A stretch of 64,000 nucleotides of DNA from positions 4,070-68,069 of the forward strand of contig CAZWKU010000002.1 in NCBI GenBank assembly GCA_964634595.1, given 5' to 3'. The notes under the pieces were generated by a model. It had not been told where the DNA came from. It saw nothing but the letters and a program-made list of their open reading frames with translations, and searched no databases. Shown piece by piece: positions 25,687-51,315 of the stretch. Made by a program: the position numbers and the translations under genes. The stretch's first letter is position 1. Each line of letters opens with the position of its first letter. The stretch comes from an uncultured Candidatus Saccharibacteria bacterium. GTDB lineage: Bacteria; Patescibacteriota; Minisyncoccia; Phycocordibacterales; Phycocordibacteraceae.

Positions 25687-27393
25687 TTAGGGATCAGTAC
25701 GGGTGATCATGTCGCGCTTAATGTCGTCAAAGGTGCCACCGACTTTTTTGCCTGGGTTAAAGATAGCTAAGGGGTCGAATATCTTTTTTGTTTTTACAAA
25801 AAGCTCTGCCATCTGGGGGCCAAAAAGTTTTTCGAGATAGGGAGTGCGGATAATGCCGTCATTGTGCTCACCTGTGGTTGAGCCACCATAGGAGATAACC
25901 AGGTCATATACCTGCGGAGCAAGATCAAGTACTACCTGTCGTACCTCGGGCTTTGCGAGATCCATGAGGGGGATAATATGAAAATTGCCGTTACCGATAT
26001 GCCCGGCGATGGTGTAGATGAAGTGTTCGCGATAGCGCGCCAGGAGCGCGTCAAGTCTCGGTAAGAAGTCGCTGTAGCAGTGGGGTGGCACCACAAAATC
26101 GTCAATAAATGGCGAGGCATACATGCCGTGGAGGTTTTTACGAAGGAGGCGAAAGCTCTCTCGGCGCACTATCCAGAATTTTTCACTCTCCATCTCGTTT
26201 TTTTCGACCTTGGTAGTGAGCTTAAGGTCTGCGAGGATACGCTCTGCCTCGTGTGCCTTGCGGCTCGCCTCCTCACTCGTGGCTTCGGCAAACTCTGCCA
26301 TGAGGATAAGGCGCGGCACCCCGCCCGTGAGCACCAGCTCTGCTTCGGGGATAAATGAGATCCCGAGACGTGCCGCTTTTACCCAGCCCATTTGTGCAAG
26401 CATCTCGGGCAAAAAGCGTACCGCAAGTTTGAATGTCTGGTCGTCGTAGCTCTCAAACGATTCAGGGTGCAGGGGGAGGATGCGCCGCACCACATCGGGG
26501 AGCACGGCAAGCTCGTGTAAAAAGACCACCAGCATCGCCCGATGCTCTTTGGGCCGTACTAAGGAGAGCTTGGCGCGGCTCCAGAGCGCGAGCGTCCCCT
26601 GCGATCCGCAGATAAGCTTTGCCAGGTTAAAACCGTGCTCGCCGGCAATACTCCAGAGCGCGTACCCGGCTGAATTTTTTGAGACCTTGGGGCGTTTGGC
26701 GTTTATGAGTGCTGTGTTTTCGCGAATAAGCGCGTGCATGCCCCGATAGATCTCACCCTCAAGCCCCTTCATGAGCTTTTTTTCATCAAGCTCTTGCGGT
26801 GTCAGAGCTTTAAACGTAGTAACTGTACCGTCGGAGAGTACCACCTCAAGCTCCTCGACATAGCGCTCGGTTTTGCCGTACTCAAGTGTGCGCTCGCCTC
26901 CTGAATTATTTGCCACTATCCCACCCATTGCGGCTATTTCACGCGAGGCAGGATATGAGGGGAGGAGCAACCCCTTTTTGAGCGTCTCTTTTTCGAAATC
27001 GCGATAATACACGCCTGGCTCGGTGACAGCGTATGCGCCCATTGAAGGATCAGCTACTTCGATGACACGGTTCATATGCTCGGTAAACGATGCTACGACT
27101 GAGGTGGTCAGGGGCCCACCGGACATATCGGTGCCCGCGGCGCGCGCGGTGAGTGAGACGTCCTCGCCGACCTCTTTTGCGGCTTTGATGTCTTGCACCA
27201 GTGCAGAGAGCTCGGCAGTATTTTTTGGATAGGCTACCAAAGAGGGTGTGCGAGTAAAGATAGAGGTATCACGCGCAAGCTTTGCACGTACTGCCGCATC
27301 TTCGCTCACCTCACCTTTGTACTGCAAAAAACGCATACCTATAGTATACTCGTGACACTGTATGAAAGAGTATCTTGGGGTAGGGATAATCAT
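25687..27393 (-). CDS. FAD-linked oxidase (GlcD / D-lactate dehydrogenase family)
   Basis: FAD-binding PCMH domain plus C-terminal FAD-oxidase domain. Confidence 0.8.
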   Translation of the reverse strand: MIIPTPRYSFIQCHEYTIGMRFLQYKGEVSEDAAVRAKLARDTSIFTRTPSLVAYPKNTAELSALVQDIKAAKEVGEDVSLTARAAGTDMSGGPLTTSVVASFTEHMNRVIEVADPSMGAYAVTEPGVYYRDFEKETLKKGLLLPSYPASREIAAMGGIVANNSGGERTLEYGKTERYVEELEVVLSDGTVTTFKALTPQELDEKKLMKGLEGEIYRGMHALIRENTALINAKRPKVSKNSAGYALWSIAGEHGFNLAKLICGSQGTLALWSRAKLSLVRPKEHRAMLVVFLHELAVLPDVVRRILPLHPESFESYDDQTFKLAVRFLPEMLAQMGWVKAARLGISFIPEAELVLTGGVPRLILMAEFAEATSEEASRKAHEAERILADLKLTTKVEKNEMESEKFWIVRRESFRLLRKNLHGMYASPFIDDFVVPPHCYSDFLPRLDALLARYREHFIYTIAGHIGNGNFHIIPLMDLAKPEVRQVVLDLAPQVYDLVISYGGSTTGEHNDGIIRTPYLEKLFGPQMAELFVKTKKIFDPLAIFNPGKKVGGTFDDIKRDMITRTDP

Positions 27394-29158: not shown

Positions 29159-29905
29159 TTATATTGCAATGAGAGATGCAATGAAAAAAGCAGTCTCATT
29201 CGGATCTTTCACCGCATGGGTTTTAATGGGTGTAGTACGTGCGGGTGCGTCGTTGCCACCGGGCTCAAGCTCGTCACCGACATAGAGCATCTCTGCGACA
29301 GAGAGTGCGAGGTGCTCGGCGAGTCGCCGAATACCAAAAGCCTTATCAACTCCCTTTTTGGTGATGTCGATAGAGGTTGAGCCACCCATGCCAACAGAAT
29401 ATGTAGGGAGGCGTAATGAAAGCTCTTTTTGCAGTGCTTGCCGCTTGGTTTTGTCAGGATCCCACGCTTGCTTTTTATCGAGGGGGGCGAGTTGCCCAAG
29501 CGCAGAGAGCGTTACCTCGCTCCCACGGTCTTCGATACGCTCGCCATAGGCGGGTTTAGAAAAGTCAATAACGCCTGTCTCTTTTGAAACTGCAAGAATC
29601 GCGGCTTTAATCTCTGCTACCTCTTCGGGCGTGAGACGCTCCTCGTATACCTGGCTCCACGAGCCGCCTCGCCACTCATAAAGCGCGGCGCCTGAAGTGG
29701 GGAGTAGGTAGAGGCTCGCAAGCTTCGCGTTTGGGGGGAGTGTGTCAACCACTTGTTTTAGAAATTGCGGCAGTGCGCCCCCCGAGATAACTGCAACTTT
29801 AGTACGTAAAAGCAATTTTGCCACCAACTCAGCCATCTGGGGCGTGAGAGCCTGCTTGCTTTCAGCAAGCGTTTGGTCTAAGTCAAACATAATCACGGGC
29901 GGCAT
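29159..29905 (-). CDS. Phosphomannomutase, HAD-type (eukaryotic PMM/Sec53-like)
   Basis: FDLDQTL HAD motif I; C-terminal YVGDELEPGGNDAP (compare eukaryotic PMM GDKTMPGGNDHEI). Confidence 0.65.
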   Translation of the reverse strand: MPPVIMFDLDQTLAESKQALTPQMAELVAKLLLRTKVAVISGGALPQFLKQVVDTLPPNAKLASLYLLPTSGAALYEWRGGSWSQVYEERLTPEEVAEIKAAILAVSKETGVIDFSKPAYGERIEDRGSEVTLSALGQLAPLDKKQAWDPDKTKRQALQKELSLRLPTYSVGMGGSTSIDITKKGVDKAFGIRRLAEHLALSVAEMLYVGDELEPGGNDAPARTTPIKTHAVKDPNETAFFIASLIAI

Positions 29906-29912
29906 GTGTTTA

Positions 29913-30158
29913 TTATAGCCCTTCGATTTTCTGATTGTAGCGGTTTTCGAGTTGCTGTTTGGCTCCTCGTGCAGAGTCTATAGCCTCAAGCTGACCCGGT
30001 ATGCTTGTGGGCGCAACAAGGGTATCTATAAGTGCAGGAGCAACGATTTTTGGTGTAAACAAGTCGCTTCGCCAGGCAAAAAGCCCAATAAGCGCTAGCG
30101 ATAGAATGAGAGCCAATAGCCCCACAAACCCACGCCTATACTGCAATTTCATACACAC
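29913..30158 (-). CDS. Small membrane protein, hypothetical
   Basis: One TM helix. Confidence 0.3.
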   Translation of the reverse strand: MCMKLQYRRGFVGLLALILSLALIGLFAWRSDLFTPKIVAPALIDTLVAPTSIPGQLEAIDSARGAKQQLENRYNQKIEGL

Positions 30159-30181
30159 AACTCTAGCATGTGCATTGCTCT

Positions 30182-30646
30182 CTATTTACCGGAGTTCTTT
30201 TTGATGTGTGCAATAAACGGAGAGGCAAGGAGTTGTTTCCAGGGGAAGAAAAGTGGTTTTGGGAGAGATGCGAAATCACGCCAATCTAGATCGATATATT
30301 TATTAGGCTCGGTGATGTGTGGAGTGCCGCTCTTATATTCAGAGAGCATCCACACCGTAAGATAGTGTTTGCCGTCTCTTCTAAAGAAATCGTTTGTTAT
30401 AGCGCCAAAGCGAATATTTTTTATGTGTACTCCCGTTTCTTCTTTTGCTTCACGGGCCGCCGTCTGTGCAGGAGACTCACCAAACTCCTGATGCCCACCA
30501 GGAACAGACCATGTACCAGAACCGTGTGCGCCTTTGCGTTTGCCCATTAAAAATCTACTGTCTCTAAAAATAAAAATGCCAACCCCGACCCGTACCTGTG
30601 GTTTTGCCACCTCCTTTTTCTTCTTCATGCGCCCCCATAATACCAC
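30182..30646 (-). CDS. NUDIX hydrolase
   Basis: Nudix box GGHQEFGESPAQTAAREAKEETG. Confidence 0.8.
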   Translation of the reverse strand: MVLWGRMKKKKEVAKPQVRVGVGIFIFRDSRFLMGKRKGAHGSGTWSVPGGHQEFGESPAQTAAREAKEETGVHIKNIRFGAITNDFFRRDGKHYLTVWMLSEYKSGTPHITEPNKYIDLDWRDFASLPKPLFFPWKQLLASPFIAHIKKNSGK

Positions 30647-30649
30647 ATC

Positions 30650-32575
30650 TTATGAAAGGGCGGAGAGGATGCGGGAGATAGAGCCCGAGGCGACACCGAG
30701 GACCTTGTCACCGCCACCGTAGTAGAGATAGAGCGTATCGCCGCGGACGATTTGCCCACACGCAAAGACGACATTGCCCACCTCGCCGCCTTTTTCGTAA
30801 TCGGTTTCGGGCTCAAAAATGGGGTCAGCGGTACGCGCCAACACAACGATGCCGGCGGCGTCAAGAAGGGCAGCGCCGAGGCGGTAGCGGCTCCGATGCG
30901 AGACGCCATGATAGATAAGGAGCCACGCGTGGTGCCCGGGGGAGAGGCTCACTTTTATTGGTGGCCCCGCAATGCCGACTTTGAGTGCGTCCCACATGCC
31001 CTCGCGCGGGCCCATGATCTCGATACAGCGCGAGACAGGTTTTTTGAAGGTGAGGTCAGGTAAAAGGTCGGCGCAGATACGCCCGGAGACCCGATGATAG
31101 AGGAGGTATTGCCCGCGGTATGCCTCGCCAAGGAGCCCCACATCTTTATCGTCAACCTGGTCTGGCGTCACGTGCACCGGCATGCTCCACTTGTCGAACT
31201 TGCGCGCCAAAAAGTCTTTAACGCTAATTGAGGTGATAGCGCCGCGCGGCGCCTTAACAGCATCGAAGGCGGTGTAGGTCATGTAGAGCATGTCGTCTAT
31301 CTGCACGATGCGCGGGTCTTCACAGCCTGAATTACCGCTTGCTTGTTTTGTCTCAAAGGTAGCGCGCGGCACGTAGCAGGGCTCAGGGAGGCGTTCATCT
31401 ATGTGAATACCATCTTTTGATAGTGCAAGACCAATGGTCGAGGTGTGATCGCTCCCCATCGCGCGGTAGAGGATATGGGCGGTACCGTCAATATCGAGCG
31501 CGGCGGCATTAAAGGTGGCGACACTTTCAAAGCCGCTACCTTGGGGTGTGAGGATAGGGTTTTGCGGAGCTCGCACGAGTGCGGGTGCCTTGCCCTTGGC
31601 GTCGAGAGTTTCGACCAGATCTGAAAGCTTCAGCTGTGCTTTTGCACAAATGGTGTCTGCGGCACCGTAGAAGAGGTCAAGGGTGCCGTCGCCGTTGTCG
31701 GTTGCTCCCGTGGGAAATACGATGTCAGGCACGAGCCCGTAGCGCTCATAGATCTCTTCAGGGACAAGAAAAGGGTAGGTGCGTCCTAGCACAATTGATG
31801 GATCATGGAGATCAAGAAGAGCGGCCTCAATACCGAACACACGCGGCCCGCCGCCAAAATAATTGACGATGTAGGAGTAGAAAATAAGCCAACCGCGCTC
31901 AGTCTTAATGGGAGGTGCTCCGGCCTCGATGTGGTCTCTGTCGCTGCGGCGGAGCTTCAAAATATGACTTTGCCAGTCGGCGTACCAGCGGGTCCAAAAG
32001 TCAGCCGACCAAAAATCTTCGATCTTGTCTGCCAGTGCGAGGCACATCTCTCCGGGTGGCCGATCAGTGTGTACGGTGAGTATGGCGGCATATTTAGTAC
32101 TCTTGTCGGCGAGCACCACTTTTTCAGGGAAGAGGGTAAAGGCCTTTGCATTGAAGGGGGTTACGAGGTGTCGCTCATCGAAATGTTCGCCATCTTTTGA
32201 TACAGCAACGCCGACTTTGATGTTGTCGGGGCCAAAAGGGTAGCCACCAAGCGCAGTATAGGTGACGTAGGTGGTGCCCTCGATGATAGTTGCGCGCGGG
32301 TCTTCACAGCCAAAGGCCTCCCAGACCTCTTGCGGGGCGATAACTTGCTGGCGCGTATGAAAATGGATACCGTCTTCAGAAAAAGCCGTGCCGATGGTTG
32401 ATTGACCTGCGTAGGGTGAGACAAGTGCCGCTGGGTTTGCAAGTGCCCGGTAGTACATACGCACACCATCTTTGACTCGTACCACACTTGGGTTAAAGGT
32501 GCCTAAAGACTCCCACGGGTGCTCACGCCTCGGTGAAAGGATGGGGTTGTGACTTGATCGTCGTGCGACAAACAT
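30650..32575 (-). CDS. Tandem two-domain GH130-family protein (beta-mannoside phosphorylase/glycosidase-like, DUF377)
   Basis: Two ~320-aa halves each with N-terminal NPIL(S/T)P...FNP...YRA motifs. Confidence 0.7.
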   Translation of the reverse strand: MFVARRSSHNPILSPRREHPWESLGTFNPSVVRVKDGVRMYYRALANPAALVSPYAGQSTIGTAFSEDGIHFHTRQQVIAPQEVWEAFGCEDPRATIIEGTTYVTYTALGGYPFGPDNIKVGVAVSKDGEHFDERHLVTPFNAKAFTLFPEKVVLADKSTKYAAILTVHTDRPPGEMCLALADKIEDFWSADFWTRWYADWQSHILKLRRSDRDHIEAGAPPIKTERGWLIFYSYIVNYFGGGPRVFGIEAALLDLHDPSIVLGRTYPFLVPEEIYERYGLVPDIVFPTGATDNGDGTLDLFYGAADTICAKAQLKLSDLVETLDAKGKAPALVRAPQNPILTPQGSGFESVATFNAAALDIDGTAHILYRAMGSDHTSTIGLALSKDGIHIDERLPEPCYVPRATFETKQASGNSGCEDPRIVQIDDMLYMTYTAFDAVKAPRGAITSISVKDFLARKFDKWSMPVHVTPDQVDDKDVGLLGEAYRGQYLLYHRVSGRICADLLPDLTFKKPVSRCIEIMGPREGMWDALKVGIAGPPIKVSLSPGHHAWLLIYHGVSHRSRYRLGAALLDAAGIVVLARTADPIFEPETDYEKGGEVGNVVFACGQIVRGDTLYLYYGGGDKVLGVASGSISRILSALS

Positions 32576-32587
32576 AAGCTAATTCTA

Positions 32588-33742
32588 TCAGGTCGCCTCT
32601 ATCTGTTCGGGGTAAAGCGCAGCTGCCGCACCCTGCTCGAGAGCCTGGAGAAAACGCTCGAGGTGAGCAGTGGCGACACAGACTACCTTGTCGGCGCCAC
32701 CGTAGTAGAGGTAGATATGTCCATCCTGAATAGTCGCACCGCACGCGTACACCACACCGGGCTTGCCTATGTTTTCATATTCAAAATCAGGTTCGAGGAC
32801 AGGTGTTTGTCCGCGGGCGACAATGTGGGTGGGGTCGTTAAGGTCAAGGAGCATGGCGCCTATTTTGTAGCGCGAGTCGCCTGGTGAGTGCGCATGGTAA
32901 AAAAGGAGCCAGCCTCGGTCAGTTCGCAAGGGTGGGGGGCCCGCACTGCGTACGTGGTCGTGCCACGCTATAAGCTTGTCCTTGCTTTGTTGCGGGTCAG
33001 GGCTCTCGAAGCCCCGCTCGCGGAGCAGGCGAAGGTCATCAGTGTACTCAATGCGTACTCGGTCATCAGACTCTCCAATAATGCTGTGGAGCACGGCAAA
33101 TTTGCCGCGTATCTTTTCGGGAAAGAGGACCCAATTTTTATCCCTGCTCCCGTGAGAAAGTACGGTGGGGCCATCCCATTTGTAGAAACGTTTCTTCACA
33201 AAGTCTTCGGTGGAGAGGGAGATGTAGCCTACGCGAAGTGTCCAATGTTCAAACATATTGAAGGTGACATAGACCGTATCCTCAATGGTAACCATACGCG
33301 GGTCTTCGCAACCGCCCCAACTACCGCCTGAAGGGTAGAGAACGGGCGAATATCGTTGCATGTTCCGTGGTACTGCGCCAAGTCCATTTGCGACATAGAC
33401 AGGGTAGGGGAGGCGCTCGTCAAAACGAAGGCCATCTTGGGAGGATGCGTAGCCGAGGCGCGAGACGCCGTCGGCGCCTATGGCCCGATATACGAGGTGG
33501 GTGCGACCGCCGATGATGGCGGCGGCCGGGTTAAGTACAGCCTCGGCCTGCCATAGGTGTTTGTCAGGCCGCAGTATTGGATTAAGAAGTGGGCGAGAAA
33601 AGCCGAACCCAAGCCGCGCCACACGCTTGATCGCGGCTACAACTGCTTCGCGGAAGGGGCGCGAGAAAGCCGCGCCGAGCACGCACCCTATGACAAATAG
33701 AGAGATAAGGAGCGCGAACCAGTAGACAAGCAGAAGTGTCAT
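32588..33742 (-). CDS. GH130-family protein with N-terminal transmembrane anchor
   Basis: TM helix then LNPILRPD...AVLNPAA...VYRAIG GH130 signature. Confidence 0.7.
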   Translation of the reverse strand: MTLLLVYWFALLISLFVIGCVLGAAFSRPFREAVVAAIKRVARLGFGFSRPLLNPILRPDKHLWQAEAVLNPAAAIIGGRTHLVYRAIGADGVSRLGYASSQDGLRFDERLPYPVYVANGLGAVPRNMQRYSPVLYPSGGSWGGCEDPRMVTIEDTVYVTFNMFEHWTLRVGYISLSTEDFVKKRFYKWDGPTVLSHGSRDKNWVLFPEKIRGKFAVLHSIIGESDDRVRIEYTDDLRLLRERGFESPDPQQSKDKLIAWHDHVRSAGPPPLRTDRGWLLFYHAHSPGDSRYKIGAMLLDLNDPTHIVARGQTPVLEPDFEYENIGKPGVVYACGATIQDGHIYLYYGGADKVVCVATAHLERFLQALEQGAAAALYPEQIEAT

Positions 33743-34101
33743 TAGGGAGAAGATCGCCCAAAGTCATCTGCAACGCGCACGATGTCGCCCTCGTCAAAGG
33801 TGCCAAGCACGAGCTCGAGTACTGCGATGCCATTTTCGCCCCCAGCAAGTCGGTGCTCGGTGCCAATGGGGATCTCAAACTCGTCGCCCACATGAGCCTG
33901 GTGATCAATGCTCCCAATAGTAACCGTACCGTCGCCCTCAATAACGCGCCAAAACTCTGCGCGTGCGTGGTGATACTGCAAAGAGAGGCGTTTCTCAGGC
34001 GCAACTCGTAGTATCTTTACGGTGACTGGCTCAGCAAGCGTGAAGCGTTCAAACGAGCCCCAGGGACGATCCTCGCGGTCGCGGTTATTGAGGAGTGCCA
34101 T
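33742..34101 (-). CDS. Cupin-domain protein (type II phosphomannose isomerase C-terminal cupin-like)
   Basis: RPWGSFERF...LSLQYHHARAEFWRVIEGDG...GTEHRLAGGENG...DIVRVADDFGR. Confidence 0.65.
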   Translation of the reverse strand: MALLNNRDREDRPWGSFERFTLAEPVTVKILRVAPEKRLSLQYHHARAEFWRVIEGDGTVTIGSIDHQAHVGDEFEIPIGTEHRLAGGENGIAVLELVLGTFDEGDIVRVADDFGRSSP

Positions 34102-34120: not shown

Positions 34121-34888
34121 TTAGATAAAGAAAAGGTAAAAAACCACAGCGAGGAGGATACGGTAGACGCCAAAGGCGGTAAAAGAGTGCCAGCGTACAT
34201 AAGAAAGTAACCAGCGCACTGAGGCAAGCGCGACAACAAAAGAGGATACAAAACCAACAAGGATAAGTATCCACTCGCCGTTGGAAAAGGCAAAACCCTC
34301 ACTAACAAGGTCAAGCCCTGAGGCGGCGAGGAGGGTGGGGACTGCTAGCAGAAAGGAGAACTCAACTATAGAAGTGCGCGAGTAACCAAGCGCAAGCCCG
34401 CCAATAACCGTGGCGGCGCTTCGCGAGACGCCCGGGATAATCGCAATTGCTTGAAAGAGACCGATGATAAGCGCATCGCGTGAGGACATGGGCTTTTCGA
34501 CAAGCTCTTCTTCAGGATGCTTCGCGTGAAAGTACTCGAAAATGATCAGGGCTATGCCCCCGCCAACAAGGGCAACAAGCACAATAAACACGTCGCCGAG
34601 CAAGTACTCTCGTGCAAAAGGATATAGTGCAAAACCCACGATACCGGTTGGGATAAAGGCGAGTGCGATTTTTTTAAGCTTCTCTACATCAAGAAACGAT
34701 CGCCAATAGAGCGCAACGACGGCGAGGATAGCTCCTAGCTGTACAACGATATCAAAGCTCTTTGAAAACTCGGTGACCGCGTTGCCAAGCGCGGCATTCG
34801 TAAGGATAAGGTGGCCGGTCGAAGATATGGGCAAAAACTCCGTCGCCCCCTCGACTATCCCGAGGAGTATTGCATCAAACCAAGTCAT
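34121..34888 (-). CDS. uppP: Undecaprenyl-diphosphatase
   Basis: GIVEGATEFLPISSTGHLIL motif; 8-TM BacA/UppP architecture. Confidence 0.85.
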   Translation of the reverse strand: MTWFDAILLGIVEGATEFLPISSTGHLILTNAALGNAVTEFSKSFDIVVQLGAILAVVALYWRSFLDVEKLKKIALAFIPTGIVGFALYPFAREYLLGDVFIVLVALVGGGIALIIFEYFHAKHPEEELVEKPMSSRDALIIGLFQAIAIIPGVSRSAATVIGGLALGYSRTSIVEFSFLLAVPTLLAASGLDLVSEGFAFSNGEWILILVGFVSSFVVALASVRWLLSYVRWHSFTAFGVYRILLAVVFYLFFI

Positions 34889-34990: not shown

Positions 34991-35533
34991 ATGTCTACAT
35001 TCGTACTCGGAGGCCTTATGGCCTTTTTTATCTTCACCGGCACCGCCGGGCACGCTACCGCACCCGACTTGCCGAGCTTCACTGCCGCGGTAACGGCCTA
35101 TAATGCCGTGCCCGAGCAGACTGACAGCGACCCGTTCACTACTGCTTCAGGAGCCTTCTCTAACCCAGAGATTGTTGCCGCACGCTCGCGTGACCTCGCT
35201 GATACACTACCCTTTGGTACCGTTATCGCTATCGAGACCGCACCGCGCTCAGATAGCTGTGGGATGTCGCTCATGGAGCGCTCTATCGGGTATCGCGTTA
35301 TCGCAGATACCATGAACCCTCGCATCACTAACACCGTTGACCTTCTCATCGCTACCGATGATATGGTGCAGGTGGGTGACAAGAGGGTGAATGCGGCCCG
35401 CGCGCTTGGGGTGTGTGAGGAGGTGACGATTCGTATCGTGGGTAAAATTGATATGACGAAACCCTCAAAAATCCCCAAAAGCCAAATGGAGCTTATTGCG
35501 CTCTTTGGCACCTCAGCCCTCGCCATCAAATAA
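34991..35533 (+). CDS. 3D-domain (RlpA/MltA-like double-psi beta-barrel) secreted protein
   Basis: Signal peptide; conserved Asp pattern IADTMNPRITNTVDLLI. Confidence 0.55.
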   Translation: MSTFVLGGLMAFFIFTGTAGHATAPDLPSFTAAVTAYNAVPEQTDSDPFTTASGAFSNPEIVAARSRDLADTLPFGTVIAIETAPRSDSCGMSLMERSIGYRVIADTMNPRITNTVDLLIATDDMVQVGDKRVNAARALGVCEEVTIRIVGKIDMTKPSKIPKSQMELIALFGTSALAIK

Positions 35534-35614: not shown

Positions 35615-36205
35615 ATGGAGTCTCTTACCTTACTCATCATTGAATACCGTTACTGGTTTCTTATCCCGCTCACATTTCTTGAAGGGCCTATTGTTGCGCT
35701 TCTTGCGGGTACTCTCGCTGCCGCACACTATTTTGATATATACCTCCTTGCACTCATTTTCATTATACGAGAAGTGGTGATGGACGGAGTGTATTACGCG
35801 CTTGGATATTACGGCGGTAAGATTGTCTGGGTGCAAAAAATGCTACACAGAGCAGGCATTCACGAAGACCATTTGGACGATATACGGCTATTGTGGGAAC
35901 GGTACCCTTTTCGAACCATGTTCGTAGGTAAAATCTCATATGGTATTGCGCTGGTATTTATACTTTGCGCCGGCTTCATACGCATGAATCTGTGGAGATT
36001 TTATGGGTATGGGATGGTTGTGGCAGTGATCCAATACGGTGTCTTATTGGCGATTGGCTATGGATACGGAAACGCATTTAGTGGAGATTTGATACACATG
36101 TTCGAACAGGCGCACTACCTCATAGCGCTCATTACGCTCATAGGTGTTATCTATTATGTGCTCGCAAAGCGTGCCAAGAGAAAGTTGTTTGAAGTGTCTG
36201 GTTAG
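35615..36205 (+). CDS. Membrane protein, possibly DedA/VTT family
   Basis: 5-6 TM helices; weak DedA-like pattern. Confidence 0.45.
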   Translation: MESLTLLIIEYRYWFLIPLTFLEGPIVALLAGTLAAAHYFDIYLLALIFIIREVVMDGVYYALGYYGGKIVWVQKMLHRAGIHEDHLDDIRLLWERYPFRTMFVGKISYGIALVFILCAGFIRMNLWRFYGYGMVVAVIQYGVLLAIGYGYGNAFSGDLIHMFEQAHYLIALITLIGVIYYVLAKRAKRKLFEVSG

Positions 36206-36948
36206 AGTCGCTTCAGCTTGCGCAGTTGATACATTTGGCGGATAGACCCGAGCACGCCCGCTATGTGGATAATGTTGGTAACCATTTTTATATCGTGTCG
36301 CACGCCACGCCATAATCCATGCTTAGCTTGTTTCGCGGGGTTCTCAACATTTGGCCACGCCACCGAAGCAATTCGCAGTTTTGCCTTGATGACGAGCGAG
36401 TTGATATACACTTCAATACCAAAACCAGGGAGCGATCGAATCGTCTGTAAATTGTGTGCCAGGAGCTTTCTTGGGACCACGCGCTCTCCAGAGAGATAGT
36501 CAATACCAATAAGTTTTAGAGCTCGGTTGATACCGATGGCGCGCCAGAACCCTCGTGCATTGATTCGGAAACTGATACTCATATCTGCATCTCCAGAAAG
36601 GACGGGAGCAAGCAGTGCCGAGATATTTTCCTCCGTAAGACCGTAGAGGTCAGCATCGAGAAAACAAAGCAAATCACCCGAAGATTTTTCAATACCTTGT
36701 GCCAGTGCATAACTTTTACCCCTATTTTTGGGCAGCGTGATAAGCGTAATAGGGAAACGTGCCGCGACAGCACTCGTATCGTCAGTGGATCCATCGTCAA
36801 CTACGATAACCTCCGCTATATCGGGTCGTCCGACCACTAGGGGGATAATAGTACCGATGCGTGGAGCCTCATTGTACGCGGGGATAATCACGGAGACTCG
36901 ATGTATCATAGACGTACTAAGTATGCTATAGAGATTCACCACTATCAA
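36202..36948 (-). CDS. Family-2 glycosyltransferase (dolichyl/polyprenyl-phosphate mannose/glucose synthase-like)
   Basis: VSVIIPAYNEAPRI, VDDGSTDDT, DADL motifs. Confidence 0.8.
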   Translation of the reverse strand: MIVVNLYSILSTSMIHRVSVIIPAYNEAPRIGTIIPLVVGRPDIAEVIVVDDGSTDDTSAVAARFPITLITLPKNRGKSYALAQGIEKSSGDLLCFLDADLYGLTEENISALLAPVLSGDADMSISFRINARGFWRAIGINRALKLIGIDYLSGERVVPRKLLAHNLQTIRSLPGFGIEVYINSLVIKAKLRIASVAWPNVENPAKQAKHGLWRGVRHDIKMVTNIIHIAGVLGSIRQMYQLRKLKRL

Positions 36949-37333: not shown

Positions 37334-37963
37334 ATGTTCGGTCTTACTCAGCACGAGCTCGCCCTGATCAAGAAACTTACTACTCCCATCAAGATTCAAG
37401 ATTTTTTAGACCAGTTGCCGTTTAATTTTGAAGAAAAGGGGGAGACGCACATGAGCCCTCGCCGCGTGCTTCGCACGCGGCGAGCACAGTGTATCGAGGG
37501 CGCGCTCTTGGCGGCTCTCGCGCTCGTCGTGCATGGCGAGAAGCCGCTCCTTATGGATTTTCGCGCGAGGAAAAACGACGATGACCATGTCGTTGCACTG
37601 TATCGTAAGAACGGCTACTGGGGGCTTATCTCAAAAACGAATCACGCCACGATTCGCTTTCGTGACCCCGTTTACAAAACGCTCCGAGAGCTCGCGCTCT
37701 CTTATTATCACGAGTGGTTCTTAAACACGACAGGAGAGAAAACGCTTGAGAGCTACTCAAACCCTCTCGACCTCTCAAAAATGAAACGCAACTGGGTCAC
37801 TGACGAGGCCGACCTTTGGTGGCTCGATAGAGAGCTCGATCGGCTACCACATCACTCGCTGGTACCGCCGAAAAACAGGCAATACCTACGTGATGCTGAC
37901 CCGATGGAGCTCAGGGCGGGCCGCCTTGTCGAATGGCACGCGAGGGGCAAGAAATCTCGCTAA
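37334..37963 (+). CDS. Hypothetical protein with conserved Cys...His...Asp pattern (possible papain/transglutaminase-like fold)
   Basis: RRAQCIEGALLAALAL ... DDDHVVALY ... ISKTNH. Confidence 0.4.
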   Translation: MFGLTQHELALIKKLTTPIKIQDFLDQLPFNFEEKGETHMSPRRVLRTRRAQCIEGALLAALALVVHGEKPLLMDFRARKNDDDHVVALYRKNGYWGLISKTNHATIRFRDPVYKTLRELALSYYHEWFLNTTGEKTLESYSNPLDLSKMKRNWVTDEADLWWLDRELDRLPHHSLVPPKNRQYLRDADPMELRAGRLVEWHARGKKSR

Positions 37964-38439: not shown

Positions 38440-39027
38440 GTGGTACAGTGTGGTTATCCTATGCTCCCTCCCTCAATAGTGCTTGCCATCGCCATTCTTA
38501 CCGTGTTTTTAGCACTGGTCGTAGGTCTCAAATACGCGGTTCAAGATAATTTCACGCGCACCCGCATAGGCATGACCGCATTTTTTGTCTTTATTGTTGT
38601 CACACTCACCATTTCTTTTTGGGAGCATGCGCTCGTCACGCTCCCGTTTACCGTCCCCTCGGCAATTGTTGGTATCATCATAGGGTACGTGCTTGGGGTT
38701 CGGACCGAGCAACAAAAGCTCGCGATGCACGGGCTCGAGTATTACATGGACCACTTTGCCCACATTCACCTCTCTGATTTTATGCATCTCACGTGGTGGA
38801 GTTTTATCAACTTTTATTCGGTTATGGGTGCGCTCGCACTCATTAATCTCGTTGGCCTAACCAATGTGATCTTTGCAGGCTCAGAGTCCTTGACCGAGCT
38901 CCTTGCTATCTGCTCGTCTGTCTTCGGTGCCTTCTTAATAGGCAGTATCGTCCCCTACCTCCTCCACCTCTGGAGCATTCGCCTTGGTCGAAAACCTAGG
39001 TTGAGTGAAAAAATTAAGGGGTGGTGA
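38440..39027 (+). CDS. Integral membrane protein, hypothetical
   Basis: 5 TM helices. Confidence 0.4.
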   Translation: MVQCGYPMLPPSIVLAIAILTVFLALVVGLKYAVQDNFTRTRIGMTAFFVFIVVTLTISFWEHALVTLPFTVPSAIVGIIIGYVLGVRTEQQKLAMHGLEYYMDHFAHIHLSDFMHLTWWSFINFYSVMGALALINLVGLTNVIFAGSESLTELLAICSSVFGAFLIGSIVPYLLHLWSIRLGRKPRLSEKIKGW

Positions 39028-39727
39028 GGTAGAGGGTGAAAGCGAGGAGGATAATGAGGGAGAGGAGAAAGGTGTGCTTGGCGAATTTTTTAGTTTGAGG
39101 CGTGGGAGGTCGGGTAATGAAGGAGGGGATACCGGCCGCCGTATAATCGTCGTAGCAATAGATCGCGATCGCGATAAAGTGCCCTATTTGCCATACAAAA
39201 AGAAATGCAAACAGGGTGAGCGCGGTGAGATCAAGCGTATTTGCAACTGCGGTGTAGCCGACCACGGGCGGCATCGCCCCTGCCACGGCGCCCACAAAGA
39301 GCGCGTGGCGAGTGCGGCGCTTAAGGGGTGTATACGCGCCTACATAAACGAGGAGCCCAAAGAGCGCCATGAGTGTGGTGAGTAGGTTGGTACCTATACC
39401 GAGGGTGAGCGTGCCGAGTACGCCGAGTACGAGCGCAAAAGATTTTGCATTTTTAAGGGAGATCTCTCCCGTGACAAGTGGGCGATCTTTGGTGCGCGCC
39501 ATGCGCGCATCAATGTCGCGGTCGAGATAATTATTTGCGGCGCAGGCCGAGGCAATAATAAGCCCAAGCCCGATAGCCATGGCCACGAGGCGTACCCAAT
39601 CGACCGGTTCGCCCGATACGTAAAAAAAGCCGCCAAGCGCAACCAGCACATTGCCGTAGACAATACCGGGCTTTGCGAGCCGGTAGTATGCATTAATCAC
39701 GCTGGTTTTGAGGAGAAACGATGCCAT
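39014..39727 (-). CDS. cyoE: Protoheme IX farnesyltransferase (heme O synthase), UbiA family
   Basis: NNYLDRDIDARMARTKDRPLVTGEIS; last gene of cyo operon. Confidence 0.75.
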   Translation of the reverse strand: MASFLLKTSVINAYYRLAKPGIVYGNVLVALGGFFYVSGEPVDWVRLVAMAIGLGLIIASACAANNYLDRDIDARMARTKDRPLVTGEISLKNAKSFALVLGVLGTLTLGIGTNLLTTLMALFGLLVYVGAYTPLKRRTRHALFVGAVAGAMPPVVGYTAVANTLDLTALTLFAFLFVWQIGHFIAIAIYCYDDYTAAGIPSFITRPPTPQTKKFAKHTFLLSLIILLAFTLYLTTP

Positions 39728-40025
39728 CTTTAAATTTTTCTAGATCACCTTGGTGGTGCTCGAGGTGTCCCATGATCCAAAGCGTACCACCCACAAGAAT
39801 ACCCACAACAATAAGGGTGAAGGCAAAAAATGCAACCTCGAACTCCTGGCCCTTTTCGCGCCCCAGGTGGAGAAAGTAGATGAGCTGTACGCCAAGCTGG
39901 AGCAGAGCGAGTAATACCAAAAGTGTTTTTGCCAAGGTACCGCTTACGCCAAACACAATGATGAGCGCCGCAAGGAGCGTGAGGAGGAGTGAAAGGCTAA
40001 AGCCAATAAGGTAGCGCCGTATCAT
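39693..40025 (-). CDS. cyoD: Quinol oxidase subunit IV
   Basis: 3 TM helices; start set at ATG overlapping cyoC stop (ATGA). Confidence 0.65.
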   Translation of the reverse strand: MIRRYLIGFSLSLLLTLLAALIIVFGVSGTLAKTLLVLLALLQLGVQLIYFLHLGREKGQEFEVAFFAFTLIVVGILVGGTLWIMGHLEHHQGDLEKFKDGIVSPQNQRD

Positions 40026-40597
40026 ACAAAAGCAAAGAGATACACTATCGTGAAGAGGAATATCCAAATAAGGTCGAGGAAGTGCCAATAGAGCCCGAGA
40101 CAGGAGAGTTTACGCAGTGTGCCCTCAGTAAAGCCACGGAGCACAAGGTGCATACCTACCACGAACATCCAAAGGAGCCCCACGCTCACATGGAGCCCAT
40201 GCGTGCCCACCAGTGTGAAAAAGGCTGAGAGAAACGCATTGGTAGCAGGGCCGTGGCCCTCGGCTATCAGGTGCGCAAACTCTACAAGCTCAAGGGCAAC
40301 GAAACTGGCACCAAGAATAAAGGTAGCGGCAAGCGCAAGAAGAGCTAGGGTCTTTTTTGCATGCCCTGCTGCAATGAGTGCAAGCCCCATCAAAAAGCTC
40401 GAGGTGAGCAGGACAATGCTTTGGGTCAGTACAAACGAGAGTGAAAAGAGCTCTTTGCCGCCAGGGCCGCCAAAGGTCGCGCTCTCGAGTACGGCGTAGG
40501 TTGCGAAGAGGCCCGCGAAGAGAACAGCGTCGGTCATCAGATAGACCCAAAAGCCAAAGGTGACGGTACTGGTGTGGGGTGAGGGTGTGTGACTCAT
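40022..40597 (-). CDS. cyoC: Quinol oxidase subunit III
   Basis: Heme-copper oxidase subunit III fold, 5 TM helices. Confidence 0.85.
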
Positions 40598-42528
40598 ACG
40601 AGTTTTTCTTTGGGGAGGGTGTACTCGATCTCCTCATCAAACGAGCGTGCAATTAGTAGCACTACTGCCGCGAGTGTGCCCAGGGCCGCAAGCCACCAGA
40701 TATGCCAGATAATCCCGAACCCGGCGACAAAGCTCGCTCCCGCGATGTACAAGCCCACCGCAGTATTTTTGGGGAGCTCGATATCGACCAGTGTGCCTCG
40801 CGCCGCCACCTTTTCGACCTCGCCTTTTTTCTCCATCCAAAACGCATCGCGACCGTGTACTATCGGGGTCGCGGCAAAGTTGTAAAAAGGTGGCGGCGCG
40901 CTCGTTGCCCACTCGAGCGTGCGCCCGCCCCAGGGGTCGCCAGTAACCGCAAGCTCCTTTCGCTTCCAGATACTGTAGGCCACCTGCACTACCTGCAAAA
41001 AGACAGCAAGCGCAATGATGCCGACGCCGATAGCGGCCACTGTGAGCAGGGGGTGCCACCCGGTCGTCGGGTCGATGTGGTAGAGGCGGCGGGTCATGCC
41101 CATAAAGCCAAGGGCATAGAGCGGTAAGAAGGCGGTTACAAAGCCCGTCATCCAGCACCAAAAGGCCGCACGCCCGAGGCCTTCGTGGAGTGTGAAGCCT
41201 GCAAACTTGGGGAACCAGTACGAGATACCAGCAAAGACTCCAAACAAAACACCGCCGATTATCATGTTGTGAAAGTGCGCGACCAAAAAGAGTGAATTAT
41301 GGAGCTCGAAGTCTGCGCCTGGCACCGAGAGGAGCACACCGGTCATCCCGCCAATGGTGAAGCTCACAATAAAACCCATAAACCAGAGCATGGGGGTTGC
41401 GAAGCGTACGCGCCCGCGAAACATGGTAAAGAGCCAGTTAAAAACTTTCACCCCGGTAGGTATGGCTATAGTGGCGGTCATAATGCCGAAAAAGGCGTTC
41501 ACATTTGCTCCTGCTCCCATGGTAAAGAAGTGGTGCACCCACACCACAAACGAGAGCACCACGATTGCGAGCGTCGCGACCACCATCGACGTGTAGCCGA
41601 AAAGTTTTTTTTGTGAAAAGACCGGCACTATTTCTGAAAAAATACCGAACGCGGGGAGAACTAATATATACACCTCGGGGTGACCCCACGCCCAGATCAG
41701 GTTGACGTAGAGCATTGCGTTGCCGCCAAGATCAGTGGTGAAAAAATGCATGTCAAAAAGGCGGTCAAACGAGAGGAGGGCGAGAGTGACGGTAAGGATA
41801 GGGAAGGCGAAGAGCACTAGCGTCATCGAGCCAAGTGCTGTCCAGGTAAAGATCGGCATACGCATCAGGGTCATGCCCGGCGCGCGCATTTTAAGTATCG
41901 TGGCCACAAAATTAATCCCGCCGAGAAGCGAGCCGATACCCGCTATCTGCAGAGCCCAAATGTAGTAATCAACACCCACCCCGGGGCTATATTCAAGCCC
42001 TGAGAGCGGTGGGTAGGCGAGCCACCCGGTGGCCGCAAACTCGCCCACTACCAGGGAGAGGTTAATGAGCATGGCGCCTGCAGCCGTGAGCCAAAAGGAG
42101 AGCGAGTTTAAGAAGGGGTAGGCGACATCACGCGCACCTATCTGTAGGGGGACGATCAAATTTAAGAGCCCAAAGATAAAGGGCATTGCAACAAAAAAGA
42201 TCATGATCACGCCGTGGGCGCTAAATATCTGCGCGAAATGGTCAGGCGAGAGGTAGCCAAATTGGTCACCTACGGCAAGTACCTGCTGACCGCGCATCAA
42301 GAAGGCGTCCATAGCGCCGCGCGCAAACATCGCCGAGGCGAGGACGAGGTACATGATGCCGATTTTTTTGGCATCAAGCGAGGTAAGCCACTCGCGCCAT
42401 AGCCAGCCCCACTTCTTAAATAGGGTAATGAGGAGCAGGGCGCCGAGAACCCCACCCACAACCATGAGTTGGCCAAAGGTCTCGATAGGCCCGTGCACAA
42501 ACGCATCAATGGTGAGGCGACCAAACAT
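40594..42528 (-). CDS. cyoB: Heme-copper quinol oxidase subunit I
   Basis: 644 aa; [14 protein letters not shown] and conserved His ligands. Confidence 0.9.
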
Positions 42529-42530
42529 AG

Positions 42531-43406
42531 TTAATGTGACTGCATGACTCTCTCTTTTGGCCCGCTATAGCGCATAAGGAGATTATAAAAGAGGTTGGGC
42601 GCAACTGCCGCATAGCTCACCTCTCTACCGCCTGGCTGAGCGCGCAGTATTGCATACTCGCTCTGTGAGAGCGTGCCGCTCGTGCTTTTAACTCGCTCGA
42701 TAAAGAGCGCGTACTCCTCCTGAGTGAGTGCATACACAGGGAAGGCCATTTCGGCGAAACCCTGACCGCTGTAATTTGCAGAAGAGCCGCGATAGGTCCC
42801 AGGGGTGTCGGCGATAAGGTGGAGCATCGTCGCCATGCCCGTCATTGCGTATATCTGCCCGCCAAGCGCGGGTATCCAAAATGAGTTCATGGGCGCATCA
42901 GCAGTAATTGCAAATTCGATTTGTTGCCCAACAGGTATCGCAAGGTGATTTGCGATAGCGACGCCTTCACCAGGGTACACAAAGAGCCATTGCGAAGGGA
43001 GGGCGATCACCTGCACCTTGAGAGGATCGCCCCCTTTTTCGAGCGCACGCGAAGGGTCAAGCGCATGGGTGCTCGACCAAATCAAGGCACCTACCACAAG
43101 CACTATCTCAATAGGTATCGCCCACCACACCAGTTCGCCCAAAGGGCCGTGCTCCCATTCGGGCTCATAGCGTGCCCGTGTGTTGCTTGCTCGATACCAC
43201 CAAGCGACGAAGCCTGCAAGCGAGAAAACCGCCACTGCGGTGATGAGCATCAGATAGAAGACATTGGTGATAAGCGAAAGCTCTTCTTGCGCGATATGGC
43301 CCTGCGGGGCGAGGAGGGTAGCACCGTGCTCTTGCAAGACAAGTGCGATAACGCCAACAACCGCAATCATGCTAAAGAGCGCCACCCCGATGAGCGGAGA
43401 CTTCAT
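42531..43406 (-). CDS. cyoA: Quinol oxidase subunit II (no CuA Cys-x3-Cys-x3-His motif, so quinol-type)
   Basis: Two N-terminal TM helices plus cupredoxin-like domain lacking CuA cysteines. Confidence 0.8.
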
Positions 43407-50583: not shown

Positions 50584-51315
50584 AATAACGTTGCATAATA
50601 TATTAATGCCCCGTCTTGCTCGCGTTGATGTCGGAAACGAAATATATCATGTCATTAATCGCGCGAATGGTCGCCTCAAGATCTTTGAATCATCACAGGA
50701 TTATCAACTCTTCGAACAGCTTCTTCTTGATGCTCAAGAACTAACCGACATGCGTATTCTCGCCTATGTCATTATGCCAAACCACTGGCACTTGTTGTTG
50801 TGGCCTATGCATGATGGCGATCTCGCACAATTCATGCATCGTCTCTCTAACACCCACACCAGGCGTATGCATACTGCTACCGGCACTATTGGGAATGGGC
50901 ACTTATACCAAGGTCGATACAAATCTTTTCTGGTTGATTCAAACAACTACCTTCTTACGATTATCAAATACATTGAACGCAATCCAGTGCGTGCCAGACT
51001 CTCCAATGCATGTGAAGAATGGCAATGGGGAAGTGCTTGGAGGCGGTCGCAGGGAACCTCAAAGCAAAAGAAACTTATACACCCCTCACCTGAACCGCTA
51101 CCACACCCGTACCTTAAGTGGATAAATACCGCCGAAAAGCCCAATGACCTCTCCATCATACGCGCCTCCGTTAACAAGAACATTCCTTTTGGCAGAGATT
51201 CGTGGGTTGACACAATGATATCCACCTATCACCTAGAGACAACGAAGCGTGGAGTGGGGCGGCCCAGAAAGAATCAGAACACACATTCATCAAAAGAATC
51301 GTGACTGTCCCCATT
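50558..51315 (+). mobile_element. RAYT/IS200-like (HuH Y1 transposase) element copy 1, 758 bp, 19-bp terminal inverted repeats AATGGGGACAGTCACGATT
   Basis: TIRs at 50558-50576 and 51297-51315; near-identical copy at 57578-58336. Confidence 0.75.
50591..51304 (+). CDS. REP-associated tyrosine transposase-like HuH (Y1) transposase
   Basis: HuH motif NHWHLLLW, catalytic Tyr region YQGRYKS, YIERNPVRARL. Confidence 0.8.
   Translation: MHNILMPRLARVDVGNEIYHVINRANGRLKIFESSQDYQLFEQLLLDAQELTDMRILAYVIMPNHWHLLLWPMHDGDLAQFMHRLSNTHTRRMHTATGTIGNGHLYQGRYKSFLVDSNNYLLTIIKYIERNPVRARLSNACEEWQWGSAWRRSQGTSKQKKLIHPSPEPLPHPYLKWINTAEKPNDLSIIRASVNKNIPFGRDSWVDTMISTYHLETTKRGVGRPRKNQNTHSSKES

Follow-up and report, generated by a model that had tools for sequence, protein, structure and literature searches.

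Glycoside hydrolase family 130 (GH130) has long been viewed as a family of soluble phosphorylases with a few secreted hydrolases, and weak transferase activity from GDP-mannose was reported only in late 2025. Its phosphorylases are recognized by an arginine/histidine pair that binds phosphate (R168/H231 in Uhgb_MP, equivalent to R202/H261 in Uhgb_MS), together with the absence of a catalytic base and of a signal peptide. Replacement of the basic phosphate ligands by carboxylates is the rule that turns GH130 phosphorylases into hydrolases, the β-mannosidases of the GH130_3 type having, where phosphate would otherwise bind, a carboxylate pair that serves as the base (E227/E268 of BT3780) and in many cases a signal peptide. 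For glycosyltransferases (GTs) and glycoside phosphorylases (GPs), the decision tree of Ladeveze (2025) assigns proteins with a short or out-folded L2 loop and three donor-phosphate contacts to the GTs and those with four contacts to a dual GP/GT class, while histidine, or the loss of arginine, at a ‘switch’ position marks the strict GTs of Leishmania, and an engineered tryptophan near the donor site of Uhgb_MS raised its GT activity 5.5-fold. Here we describe an operon from a 64,000-nucleotide stretch of contig CAZWKU010000002.1, which derives from an uncultured Candidatus Saccharibacteria bacterium and is referred to below, at its full length, as the window. The true conserved unit of this operon, recovered from many genomes of the Patescibacteria, is a trio of genes encoding a membrane-anchored GH130 protein, a GH130–GH130 fusion and a mutase of the HAD superfamily. 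The three GH130 domains of the trio differ from one another at the phosphate and donor site, and the trio may serve an endogenous β-1,2-mannoside. A membrane-anchored GH130, the trio operon and the two-state donor site reported below were not found described in the literature searched, in which GH130 in the candidate phyla radiation (CPR) is mentioned in passing.

All three domains match PF04041 and carry the proton-donor aspartate within an ‘EDPR’ block, as expected for GH130 in CAZy. Residues were equated through an alignment to Uhgb_MS, in which E136–D137 lies in ‘ED’, K184 in ‘NKD’, R202 in ‘(L/F)HR’ and R242 in ‘aRVG’, and residue states were counted in 120 homologues of each protein. The proton donor (D147 in the anchored protein, D92 and D420 in the N- and C-terminal domains of the fusion) is invariant in 120/120 homologues of each. 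The nearest characterized relatives are the GH130_6 β-1,2-mannoside phosphorylases Teth514_1788 and Teth514_1789, followed by Lin0857 and Uhgb_MS, and the residues by which β-1,2 specificity is recognized (E136/K184 of Uhgb_MS; E141/K199 of BT3780) are present throughout, the glutamate beside the proton donor, the +1-subsite lysine, R47 and the C-terminal aspartate being invariant (120/120). At the switch position, R202 of Uhgb_MS, each domain keeps to a state of its own: arginine in 120/120 C-domains, serine or glycine in 120/120 anchored proteins, and threonine, serine or alanine in 120/120 N-domains. As judged from the alignment, only one of the three GH130 domains holds the complete phosphate-binding set. 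The original prediction had named three GH130 domains, one of them behind an N-terminal transmembrane (TM) anchor, and this agrees with the Pfam matches and with an anchor helix found in every one of the 120 homologues. It had further taken all three for phosphorylases feeding glycolysis, which the residue comparison corrects in its detail: the catalytic aspartate on which it proposed to be judged is present in all three, but the full phosphate set occurs in the C-domain of the fusion only. Li et al. (2020) tabulated 15 meta-nodes, none of which accommodates the anchored type or the N-domain. Nor do the domains belong to GT108, since no GT108 chain was matched by sequence at E ≤ 1e-3 by any of the three; in a structural comparison with Foldseek, MTP4 (6Q50) aligned to the model of the anchored protein at E 3e-9 with 12% identity, below 35 GH130 chains.

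Within the 641-residue fusion, the C-terminal domain would by published criteria be a canonical β-1,2-mannoside phosphorylase. Its signature comprises R371, E419, D420, K477, H494–R495, K532, H556, Y564 and D623; R495 and H556, which make up the phosphate-binding pair, are each found in 120/120 homologues, K532 and Y564 are kept, the domain is an internal part of a cytoplasmic protein, and its best match in the Protein Data Bank (PDB) is Teth514_1788 (E 6e-44). The N-terminal domain keeps the sugar site (R43, E91, D92, R94, K144 and D307) but has lost all of the phosphate ligands, the corresponding residues being T170, H215, S234 and F247. Among its homologues the switch arginine is replaced by threonine, serine or alanine, R242 by histidine or glutamine, H261 by serine or alanine and Y269 by phenylalanine, leaving no arginine/histidine pair. 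Beside these lost ligands the N-domain has gained three invariant carboxylates, D171, E217 and E250, the latter two at positions where the other two domain types have invariant glycines; they do not align demonstrably with E227/E268 of BT3780, and a signal peptide is absent. PF04041 matches the fusion twice (285 bits), and the whole protein scores 364 bits against the NCBIfam β-1,2-mannobiose phosphorylase model, which is under the equivalog cut-off of 450. An AlphaFold2 (AF2) model of high confidence (pLDDT 91 and pTM 0.89 over 641 residues, with pLDDT > 90 in the N-domain) implies that the fusion is a fixed pseudo-dimer of a carboxylate-bearing and a canonical propeller. GH130–GH130 tandems have been noted in CAZy as rare curiosities, and the characterized relatives are obligate dimers with an interface that borders the donor site.

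The anchored protein finds its best PDB relatives in Teth514_1788 (E 5e-39) and Teth514_1789, and its AF2 model (pLDDT 82) is matched most closely by 9fj8 (TMt 0.81, 32% identity). Of the 8000 candidates that were scored, 2633 are homologues at E ≤ 1e-10, and the 120 best of these all have approximately 380–390 residues. R86, E146, the proton donor D147 (33302–33304), R149, K202, H283, Y292 and D351 are kept, while the donor pocket is altered by W204 (33131–33133), by S220 in place of the switch arginine (33083–33085) and by V264–R265 (32948–32953). In the homologues the switch residue is serine in 101 and glycine in 19 of 120, with the histidine and tyrosine kept. The anchored protein thus lacks an intact arginine/histidine pair, the histidine alone being still in place; at the R242 position the basic residue is shifted by one, and Trp204 is gained. 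Set against the GH130_3-type mannosidase pattern, the protein has gained no carboxylate at all. Its L2 loop is short, four residues longer than that of Teth514_1788, which together with the missing switch arginine would formally place it under the post-hoc GT rule of Ladeveze (2025). Tryptophan occupies position 204 in none of the four characterized β-1,2 enzymes aligned (Ala, Ala, Val and Cys).

That these changes belong together emerged when 1.8 billion cluster representatives were searched exhaustively. This gave 3029 relatives, the best 150 of which were typed with hidden Markov models (HMMs) for the three domain types. Among 139 anchored-type domains the sugar-site residues are invariant and the donor site occurs in two mutually exclusive states. 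In the canonical state, seen in 38 domains, it reads K202-N/S-(A/G/C)204, H219-R220 and K264-(L/I/V)265; in the remodelled state, seen in 101 domains including the window protein, it reads K202-N-W204, H219-(S/G/N/A)220 and (V/I/L)264-R265. Trp204 is present and Arg220 absent in 100 of the 139, the reverse holds in 37, and there are two exceptions (Fisher p 2e-31, a statistic that ignores shared ancestry and so measures association rather than independent events). Misalignment does not account for the shift of the basic residue by one position, because the spacing of W260...G266 is equal in both states, with no insertion or deletion. A ‘migrated arginine’ that would stand in for the switch arginine was considered and set aside: R200 and R230 are invariant in the close homologues, but most members of the wider clade that lack the switch arginine are also without both. 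From this comparison the donor site of the anchored type appears to be the outcome of coordinated, specific remodelling rather than of decay. In the same 150 proteins the anchored-type catalytic domain stands behind a TM helix in 11, behind a domain of approximately 270 residues, here called ‘X’, in 88 and alone in 28 (some of them fragments), and it is also found fused to the other types; the membrane helix is present in some proteins of either donor-site state and missing from others. Domain X was examined as a possible foreign catalytic domain (GT or membrane) and rejected as such, having no Pfam match and matching the GH130 HMMs (51 at E < 1e-3); it is best described from these matches as a strongly degenerate GH130-like propeller. 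The commonest architecture outside the lineage is a soluble protein of approximately 610 residues (e.g. P0245, P0246, P0254 and P0259), a tandem unlike the fusion of the window.

The N-terminal hydrophobic helix of the anchored protein is conserved in 120/120 homologues and its GxxxG motif in 119/120. The N-side flank has a net charge of zero or less in 116/120 and the 15 residues on the C-side a net charge of at least +1 in 115/120, while the uncharged run has a median of 28 residues over the 120 homologues. The AF2 model has a helix at residues 3–25 (pLDDT 87–93) and another at residues 28–41, and then a linker of low confidence. Under the positive-inside rule the cytoplasmic flank of a membrane helix carries more positive charge, and the length of the helix and its charge bias are those of a single-pass N-out/C-in membrane protein, in a predicted orientation that places the catalytic domain in the cytoplasm, tethered and not exported. 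The original prediction had considered a membrane-anchored phosphorylase unusual because such enzymes are normally cytoplasmic and had proposed that its topology be predicted. The tether holds up, but the paradox falls away since the catalytic domain is predicted to face the cytoplasm, where phosphate, mannose 1-phosphate (Man-1-P) and GDP-mannose occur. Two other explanations of the hydrophobic N-terminus were discarded. Against a Sec signal peptide or a mis-called start stand the missing basic n-region (116/120), the median uncharged run of 28 residues, the overlap of the start and the upstream stop codon and the conservation of the helix and its GxxxG in sequence.

The extent to which these genes travel together was determined by a pattern search using one genome per species, which found relatives of the anchored GH130 in 362 genomes; the best 80 loci, all from Patescibacteria, were analysed by searching every window protein against all of their open reading frames (ORFs). 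The close homologues all come from metagenome-assembled genomes of Paceibacteria, Kaiserbacteria, Parcubacteria or Minisyncoccia. The fusion comes after the anchored GH130 in 63 of the 69 loci that extend far enough and the HAD mutase follows the fusion in 61/67, while the cupin is directly upstream of the anchored GH130 in just 10/75, the NUDIX gene is found at its window position in 0/67 other genomes, and within 6 kb upstream UppP occurs in 5/55, GT2 in 4/55 and DedA in 1/55. The cupin, NUDIX and UppP/GT2/DedA genes are lineage-specific coincidences or add-ons, so that the coherent five-gene module of the original prediction shrinks to three genes. No transporter, binding protein, secreted or extracellular glycosidase or ManC was found in the operon or within ±10 kb of it in the 80 genomes. 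Elsewhere, the upstream neighbours are divergently transcribed and encode PanD, a pyridoxal-phosphate (PLP) enzyme, VIT1 and two proteins that have no assignment, and none of these has to do with sugars. Two natural fusions join the domain types in a single chain: P0242 combines a TM helix, a remodelled domain and a canonical domain, and P0241 (971 residues) a remodelled, an N-type and a C-type domain. Taken together, the synteny, these natural fusions and the confident model of the window fusion link the GH130 domain types as parts of one system.

Other genes recur around the trio. A protein of 180 residues with an N-terminal hydrophobic segment (window 34991–35533, plus strand) is encoded within 6 kb upstream and on the opposite strand in 36/55 genomes, and one of 209 residues (window 37334–37963, plus strand) likewise in 29/55, which makes both commoner near the operon than the cupin, UppP or GT2. 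In 5/75 related loci the anchored GH130 and the fusion are separated by an extra gene for a basic protein of approximately 205 residues (e.g. L085:11164–11787 and L086:11157–11774); the protein has no match in Pfam, NCBIfam or the PDB and is absent from the window. An FAD-linked oxidase resembling D-lactate or glycolate oxidase (PF01565 and PF02913; window 25687–27393, minus strand) lies 2–9 kb downstream of the trio in about one quarter of the loci, a position that is probably a matter of conserved gene order and not of function.

The third member of the trio is, to judge by its motifs, surely a hexose-phosphate mutase. It scores 32.5 bits against the phosphomannomutase (PMM) family PF03332, above the gathering cut-off of 22.4, has intact DxDxT (D8, D10, T12) and GD...GGND motifs, and so belongs with the HAD-IIB phosphohexomutases of the PMM/PgmH type. 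Over its full length it is most similar to 4BND, the HAD-type α-phosphoglucomutase of Lactococcus lactis (E 6e-47), with eukaryotic PMMs following at 1e-8 to 1e-12. PgmH of L. lactis is reportedly glucose-specific. A preference of the putative mutase for mannose is argued for by its operon context (61/67) and by that only. The phosphomannomutase named in the original prediction is therefore upheld as a sugar-phosphate mutase linked to the GH130 genes, but its nearest relative is an α-phosphoglucomutase and its specificity for mannose is not established. Over its whole length the cupin aligns with the phosphomannose isomerase (PMI) domain at the C-terminus of Escherichia coli CpsB/ManC, and the RPWG, SLQxH..R.E.W, G..HR and DD.GR blocks are kept in it as in all 12 CPR orthologues. 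Q42, H44, R47, E49 and H83 are kept in 12/12 CPR orthologues; relative to SLQxHHHRxEHW, the third histidine of ‘HHH’ is Ala, Lys or Glu and ‘EHW’ has become ‘EFW’. The original prediction was to fall if the cupin showed no PMI-type metal ligands, and this is not the case, the signature blocks of type II PMI being in place; the protein is a putative PMI, to be regarded as an accessory partner outside the conserved core.

The NUDIX protein scores 16.7 bits against the GDP-mannose mannosyl hydrolase model, for which the cut-off is 146, and its closest PDB entries are Arabidopsis thaliana NUDT1, NUDT15, MutT types and geranyl-diphosphate phosphohydrolase. A role as a GDP-mannose hydrolase (Gmm/NudD or NudK) that would link the operon to nucleotide sugars was accordingly rejected, the protein being of the wrong subfamily and its gene not syntenic, and it is probably unrelated to the GH130 module. 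Approximately 3.5 kb separate the NUDIX gene from UppP, downstream of which it stands in a shared run of genes, and a role of its product on prenyl diphosphates rather than on nucleotides is conceivable.

The account that we favour, plausible if still short of probable, is that the trio synthesizes and phosphorolytically recycles an endogenous β-1,2-mannoside, either a mannogen-like reserve or a membrane-associated mannan, and does not serve the digestion of external sugars. An endogenous substrate is preferred because no transporter, secreted glycoside hydrolase or ManC is linked to the trio in the 80 genomes or in the window. The trio would handle β-1,2-linked mannosides at the cytoplasmic face of the membrane with α-mannose-1-phosphate as currency. 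In this scheme the C-domain of the fusion would catalyse the reversible reaction (Man)n + Pi ↔ (Man)n–1 + Man-1-P, where Pi is inorganic phosphate, and the N-domain, held in its fixed pseudo-dimer with the phosphorylase domain, might trim chains in the manner of a hydrolase or bind them. The anchored enzyme would be biased towards transfer from an activated α-mannosyl donor, most likely GDP-mannose, and might act as primer or elongating enzyme; we infer this bias from the reduced number of basic contacts and the new aromatic residue in the donor pocket. The mutase would connect Man-1-P with mannose 6-phosphate (Man-6-P) and the cupin, where present, would connect Man-6-P with fructose 6-phosphate. 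The suggestion in the original prediction that the anchored GH130 might be a glycosyltransferase fits the missing switch arginine and the rules published for GH130 and GT108. In its boldest form, which we consider unlikely, the proposal is that the Trp204/Ser220/Arg265 protein is a natural, dedicated β-1,2-mannosyltransferase that, with the phosphorylase/hydrolase-like fusion and the mutase, makes and recycles a β-1,2-mannan on the inner side of the membrane in Patescibacteria whose species number in the hundreds. If true, Leishmania mannogen would have a counterpart in bacteria, and these ultra-small cells might have in it their main carbohydrate reserve or the precursor of a surface glycan.

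Several points weigh against the favoured account. The R202A variant of Uhgb_MS lost its GT and not its GP activity, according to Franceus et al. the choice between GP and GT does not hang on the switch residue alone and distal residues matter, and the residue rules for the two activities are themselves post-hoc. No source of GDP-mannose (ManC) was found in the window or flanks, to which that search was limited, and no report of a β-1,2-mannan from these bacteria was found in the literature searched. The closest characterized relative of the mutase, as identified by sequence comparison, is a phosphoglucomutase, the covariation statistic takes no account of common descent, and the predicted topology has the positive-inside rule as its sole basis. 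Finally, the remodelled state is also found in soluble forms (59 X-S representatives), so that anchor and remodelling are separable; with soluble forms making up most of the remodelled enzymes, the account does not explain what the membrane is for.

Were all three domains ordinary phosphorylases, the locus would be a routine sugar-salvage operon with an odd anchor, and it is as ATP-sparing catabolism that the original prediction construed it: β-mannosides would be imported and phosphorolysed to Man-1-P by the GH130 enzymes, and mutase and PMI would lead on to fructose 6-phosphate. Such catabolism is the textbook role of GH130 phosphorylases, a Microgenomates genome paper interpreted its GH130 genes likewise, and here one canonical phosphorylase domain is present, the mutase is syntenic and a PMI-type cupin is adjacent, as it is in the 10/75 genomes. 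We nevertheless doubt it, for two of the three GH130 domains are without a full phosphate site, and the conserved tether and remodelled pocket would both go unexplained. Against the salvage of external β-mannosides also stands that in the 80 genomes neither a transporter nor a binding protein nor an extracellular glycosidase lies in the operon or close to it; β-1,2-mannans are moreover rare substrates, with no source known even for Thermoanaerobacter. A different reading, that only the C-domain of the fusion is catalytic and that the anchored protein and the N-domain are dead, lectin-like partners with localizing or regulating roles, draws on the loss of phosphate ligands in both, on the degenerate domain X carried by many relatives and on the obligate dimers formed by characterized relatives. 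It strikes us as very improbable: the proton-donor aspartate and all sugar-contacting residues are invariant in both types over hundreds of species, the donor site of the anchored type is remodelled in a coordinated, specific fashion and not decayed, and the N-domain has gained invariant carboxylates where phosphate was once bound.

The membrane tether could be accommodated by envelope glycan synthesis without nucleotide sugars, in which the anchored enzyme and the fusion would mannosylate a membrane-bound acceptor, be it a glycolipid, a lipid-linked glycan or a lipoprotein, by reverse phosphorolysis with Man-1-P supplied by the mutase, and export would follow. Enzymes of the Teth514_1788 type build long β-1,2 chains in vitro when given Man-1-P, no partner other than the mutase is conserved and such a route would, we presume, suit organisms poor in nucleotide supply. 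High cytoplasmic Pi disfavours net synthesis by phosphorylases. The tether with its GxxxG is conserved, yet most members of the clade are soluble, and the fewer phosphate ligands of the anchored enzyme should weaken its use of Man-1-P. UppP, DedA and GT2 adjoin the operon in the window just as the original prediction stated when it pointed to lipid-linked acceptors, but the 5, 1 and 4 occurrences in 55 loci given above mean that the adjacency is not conserved, and it was set aside as evidence; no flippase or exporter is linked either. We therefore judge this route improbable. The synthesis and recycling of an endogenous β-1,2-mannoside remains the account that we prefer.

The features of the locus are collected in Table 1. 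The five ORFs first singled out (HAD, NUDIX, fusion, anchored GH130 and cupin) were found by an ORF scan of the window at exactly the coordinates predicted, all on the minus strand and as tightly packed as had been claimed. The gaps are 19 nt between UppP and the cupin, –1 nt between the cupin and the anchored GH130, whose ATG start overlaps the cupin stop by 1 nt, 12 nt between the anchored GH130 and the fusion, 3 nt between the fusion and NUDIX, 23 nt between NUDIX and an 81-residue ORF and 7 nt between this ORF and the HAD gene, the range of –1 to 23 nt thus covering the whole series. The Pfam and NCBIfam scores of the operon proteins are far above chance. The 81-residue ORF has no Pfam or NCBIfam family and no homologue among the 80 related loci; on an identical ENA contig of 24.7 kb, which carries the same genes, it is called as a gene of 79 residues. 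GT2 lies outside the transcription unit of the operon because DedA and the gene for the 180-residue protein run on the opposite strand.

Table 1. Features of the GH130 operon and its surroundings; positions are those of the window.
Feature	Position	Strand	Basis or remark
Membrane-anchored GH130, 384 aa, remodelled-site type	32588..33742	–	PF04041, 117 bits
N-terminal TM helix, residues 3–25, with GxxxG (G19...G23), then basic amphipathic helix 28–41	33668..33736	–	Predicted N-out/C-in; codons verified
Five-bladed propeller, catalytic part of anchored GH130	32627..33595	–	Alignments to Teth514_1788 and Uhgb_MS; codons verified
N-terminal GH130 domain of fusion, residues 1–328	31592..32575	–	PF04041; 120 homologues; codons verified
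C-terminal GH130 domain of fusion, residues 329–641	30650..31591	–	PF04041; Teth514_1788 best PDB match
HAD-IIB sugar-phosphate mutase (PgmH/eukaryotic-PMM family)	29159..29905	–	PF03332, TIGR01484
Stand-alone cupin, equivalent to C-terminal domain of type II PMI (bifunctional ManC/PMI)	33742..34101	–	PF01050, 65 bits
NUDIX hydrolase, NUDT1/MutT-like	30182..30646	–	PF00293, 77.6 bits
81-aa ORF with one hydrophobic segment, between NUDIX and HAD	29913..30158	–	ORF scan
Undecaprenyl-diphosphate phosphatase UppP	34121..34888	–	PF02673, 239 bits; TIGR00753 above cut-off
DedA/VTT protein	35615–36205	+	Pfam/NCBIfam
GT2	36202–36948	–	Pfam/NCBIfam

The remaining genes of the window are housekeeping genes, among them rpoB/C, dnaG and those for sigma-70, HisRS and RNase R. 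The rest of the 64 kb holds no ManC, sugar transporter or further glycan genes, and an Rfam scan of the window gave zero matches. Patescibacteria are usually described as fermentative and without a respiratory chain. The window contains a haem–copper terminal oxidase operon (39014–43406, minus strand) encoding COX2, COX1 (644 residues), COX3 and COX4_pro together with a UbiA-type haem O synthase, and the AT skew is unusually high at 40–44 kb. A 2025 paper reports that adaptations to oxic conditions are widespread among CPR bacteria (PMC12577380). Two IS200-like Y1 transposase genes (PF01797; 237 residues each) at 50591–51304 and 57612–58325, both on the plus strand and 7 kb apart, are 99% identical (234/237); in this reduced genome they reflect either a duplication that happened recently or an element that is active. 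Around and between them are Fic/DOC, NTPase and other accessory genes, and the GC content falls to approximately 48%.

Three functionally differentiated versions of GH130 are kept together, sometimes fused, by a phylum whose carbohydrate enzymes are very few, and this in at least 362 species-level genomes. For the CPR, the physiology of which is largely unknown, the operon points to a concrete candidate, an endogenous mannan for storage or for the envelope. At the same time the two mutually exclusive, covarying states of the donor pocket offer a natural experiment on the choice between phosphorylase, transferase and hydrolase.

Among known systems, the three domains are all best matched, in sequence and in fold, by the enzymes of Thermoanaerobacter X-514 (PDB 9FJ8 and 7FIP), with E values of 5e-39 to 6e-44, TMt 0.81 and approximately 30–32% identity. 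These enzymes share the short L2 loop, the E/K β-1,2 pair and the proton donor, and the C-domain of the fusion shares their whole phosphate site. However, the Thermoanaerobacter enzymes are soluble, single-domain proteins in a catabolic or salvage cluster with an ABC transporter, GH5, ManC and GT4, whereas here one copy is tethered and remodelled, one is without a phosphate site, two are fused and the HAD mutase is the sole conserved partner. Uhgb_MS and Lin0857 (GH130_4) provide the precedent for a β-1,2 GH130 that uses GDP-mannose, acting as dual phosphorylases and weak transferases, but they keep R202 and R242, have a 48-residue lid loop that is absent here, carry Cys or Val and not Trp at the position two residues after K184, and are soluble. 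The N-domain resembles the GH130_3 β-1,2-mannosidases BT3780 and BACOVA_03624 in having lost basic phosphate ligands and gained carboxylates while keeping the K199-type lysine and the proton donor, and differs from them in that its carboxylates lie next to, and not demonstrably at, E227/E268, in the absence of a signal peptide and in being fused to a phosphorylase in the cytoplasm. The mutase is homologous over its full length to L. lactis PgmH (4BND), shares the intact motifs and the above-threshold PF03332 match of the HAD-IIB proteins that include eukaryotic PMM1/PMM2, and is set apart from PgmH by an operon context that argues for mannose phosphates. Cyclic β-1,2-glucan synthase (Cgs) combines GT84 with a GH94 phosphorylase domain that controls the β-1,2 chain within one membrane protein; as folds and sugar differ, the analogy is only functional, that of a phosphorylase domain in a membrane-associated biosynthetic machine. 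In Leishmania, the GT108 proteins MTP1–7 of mannogen metabolism are propeller paralogues that have likewise split into strict transferases, in which the switch is not arginine, and phosphorylases, in which it is. They belong to a different family, the switch here being Ser or Gly and not His, and the system described here is bacterial, membrane-tethered and operon-encoded. The proposed likeness lies in mannogen itself, a cytosolic β-1,2-mannan cycled through Man-1-P and GDP-mannose, as may be the product of the CPR operon.

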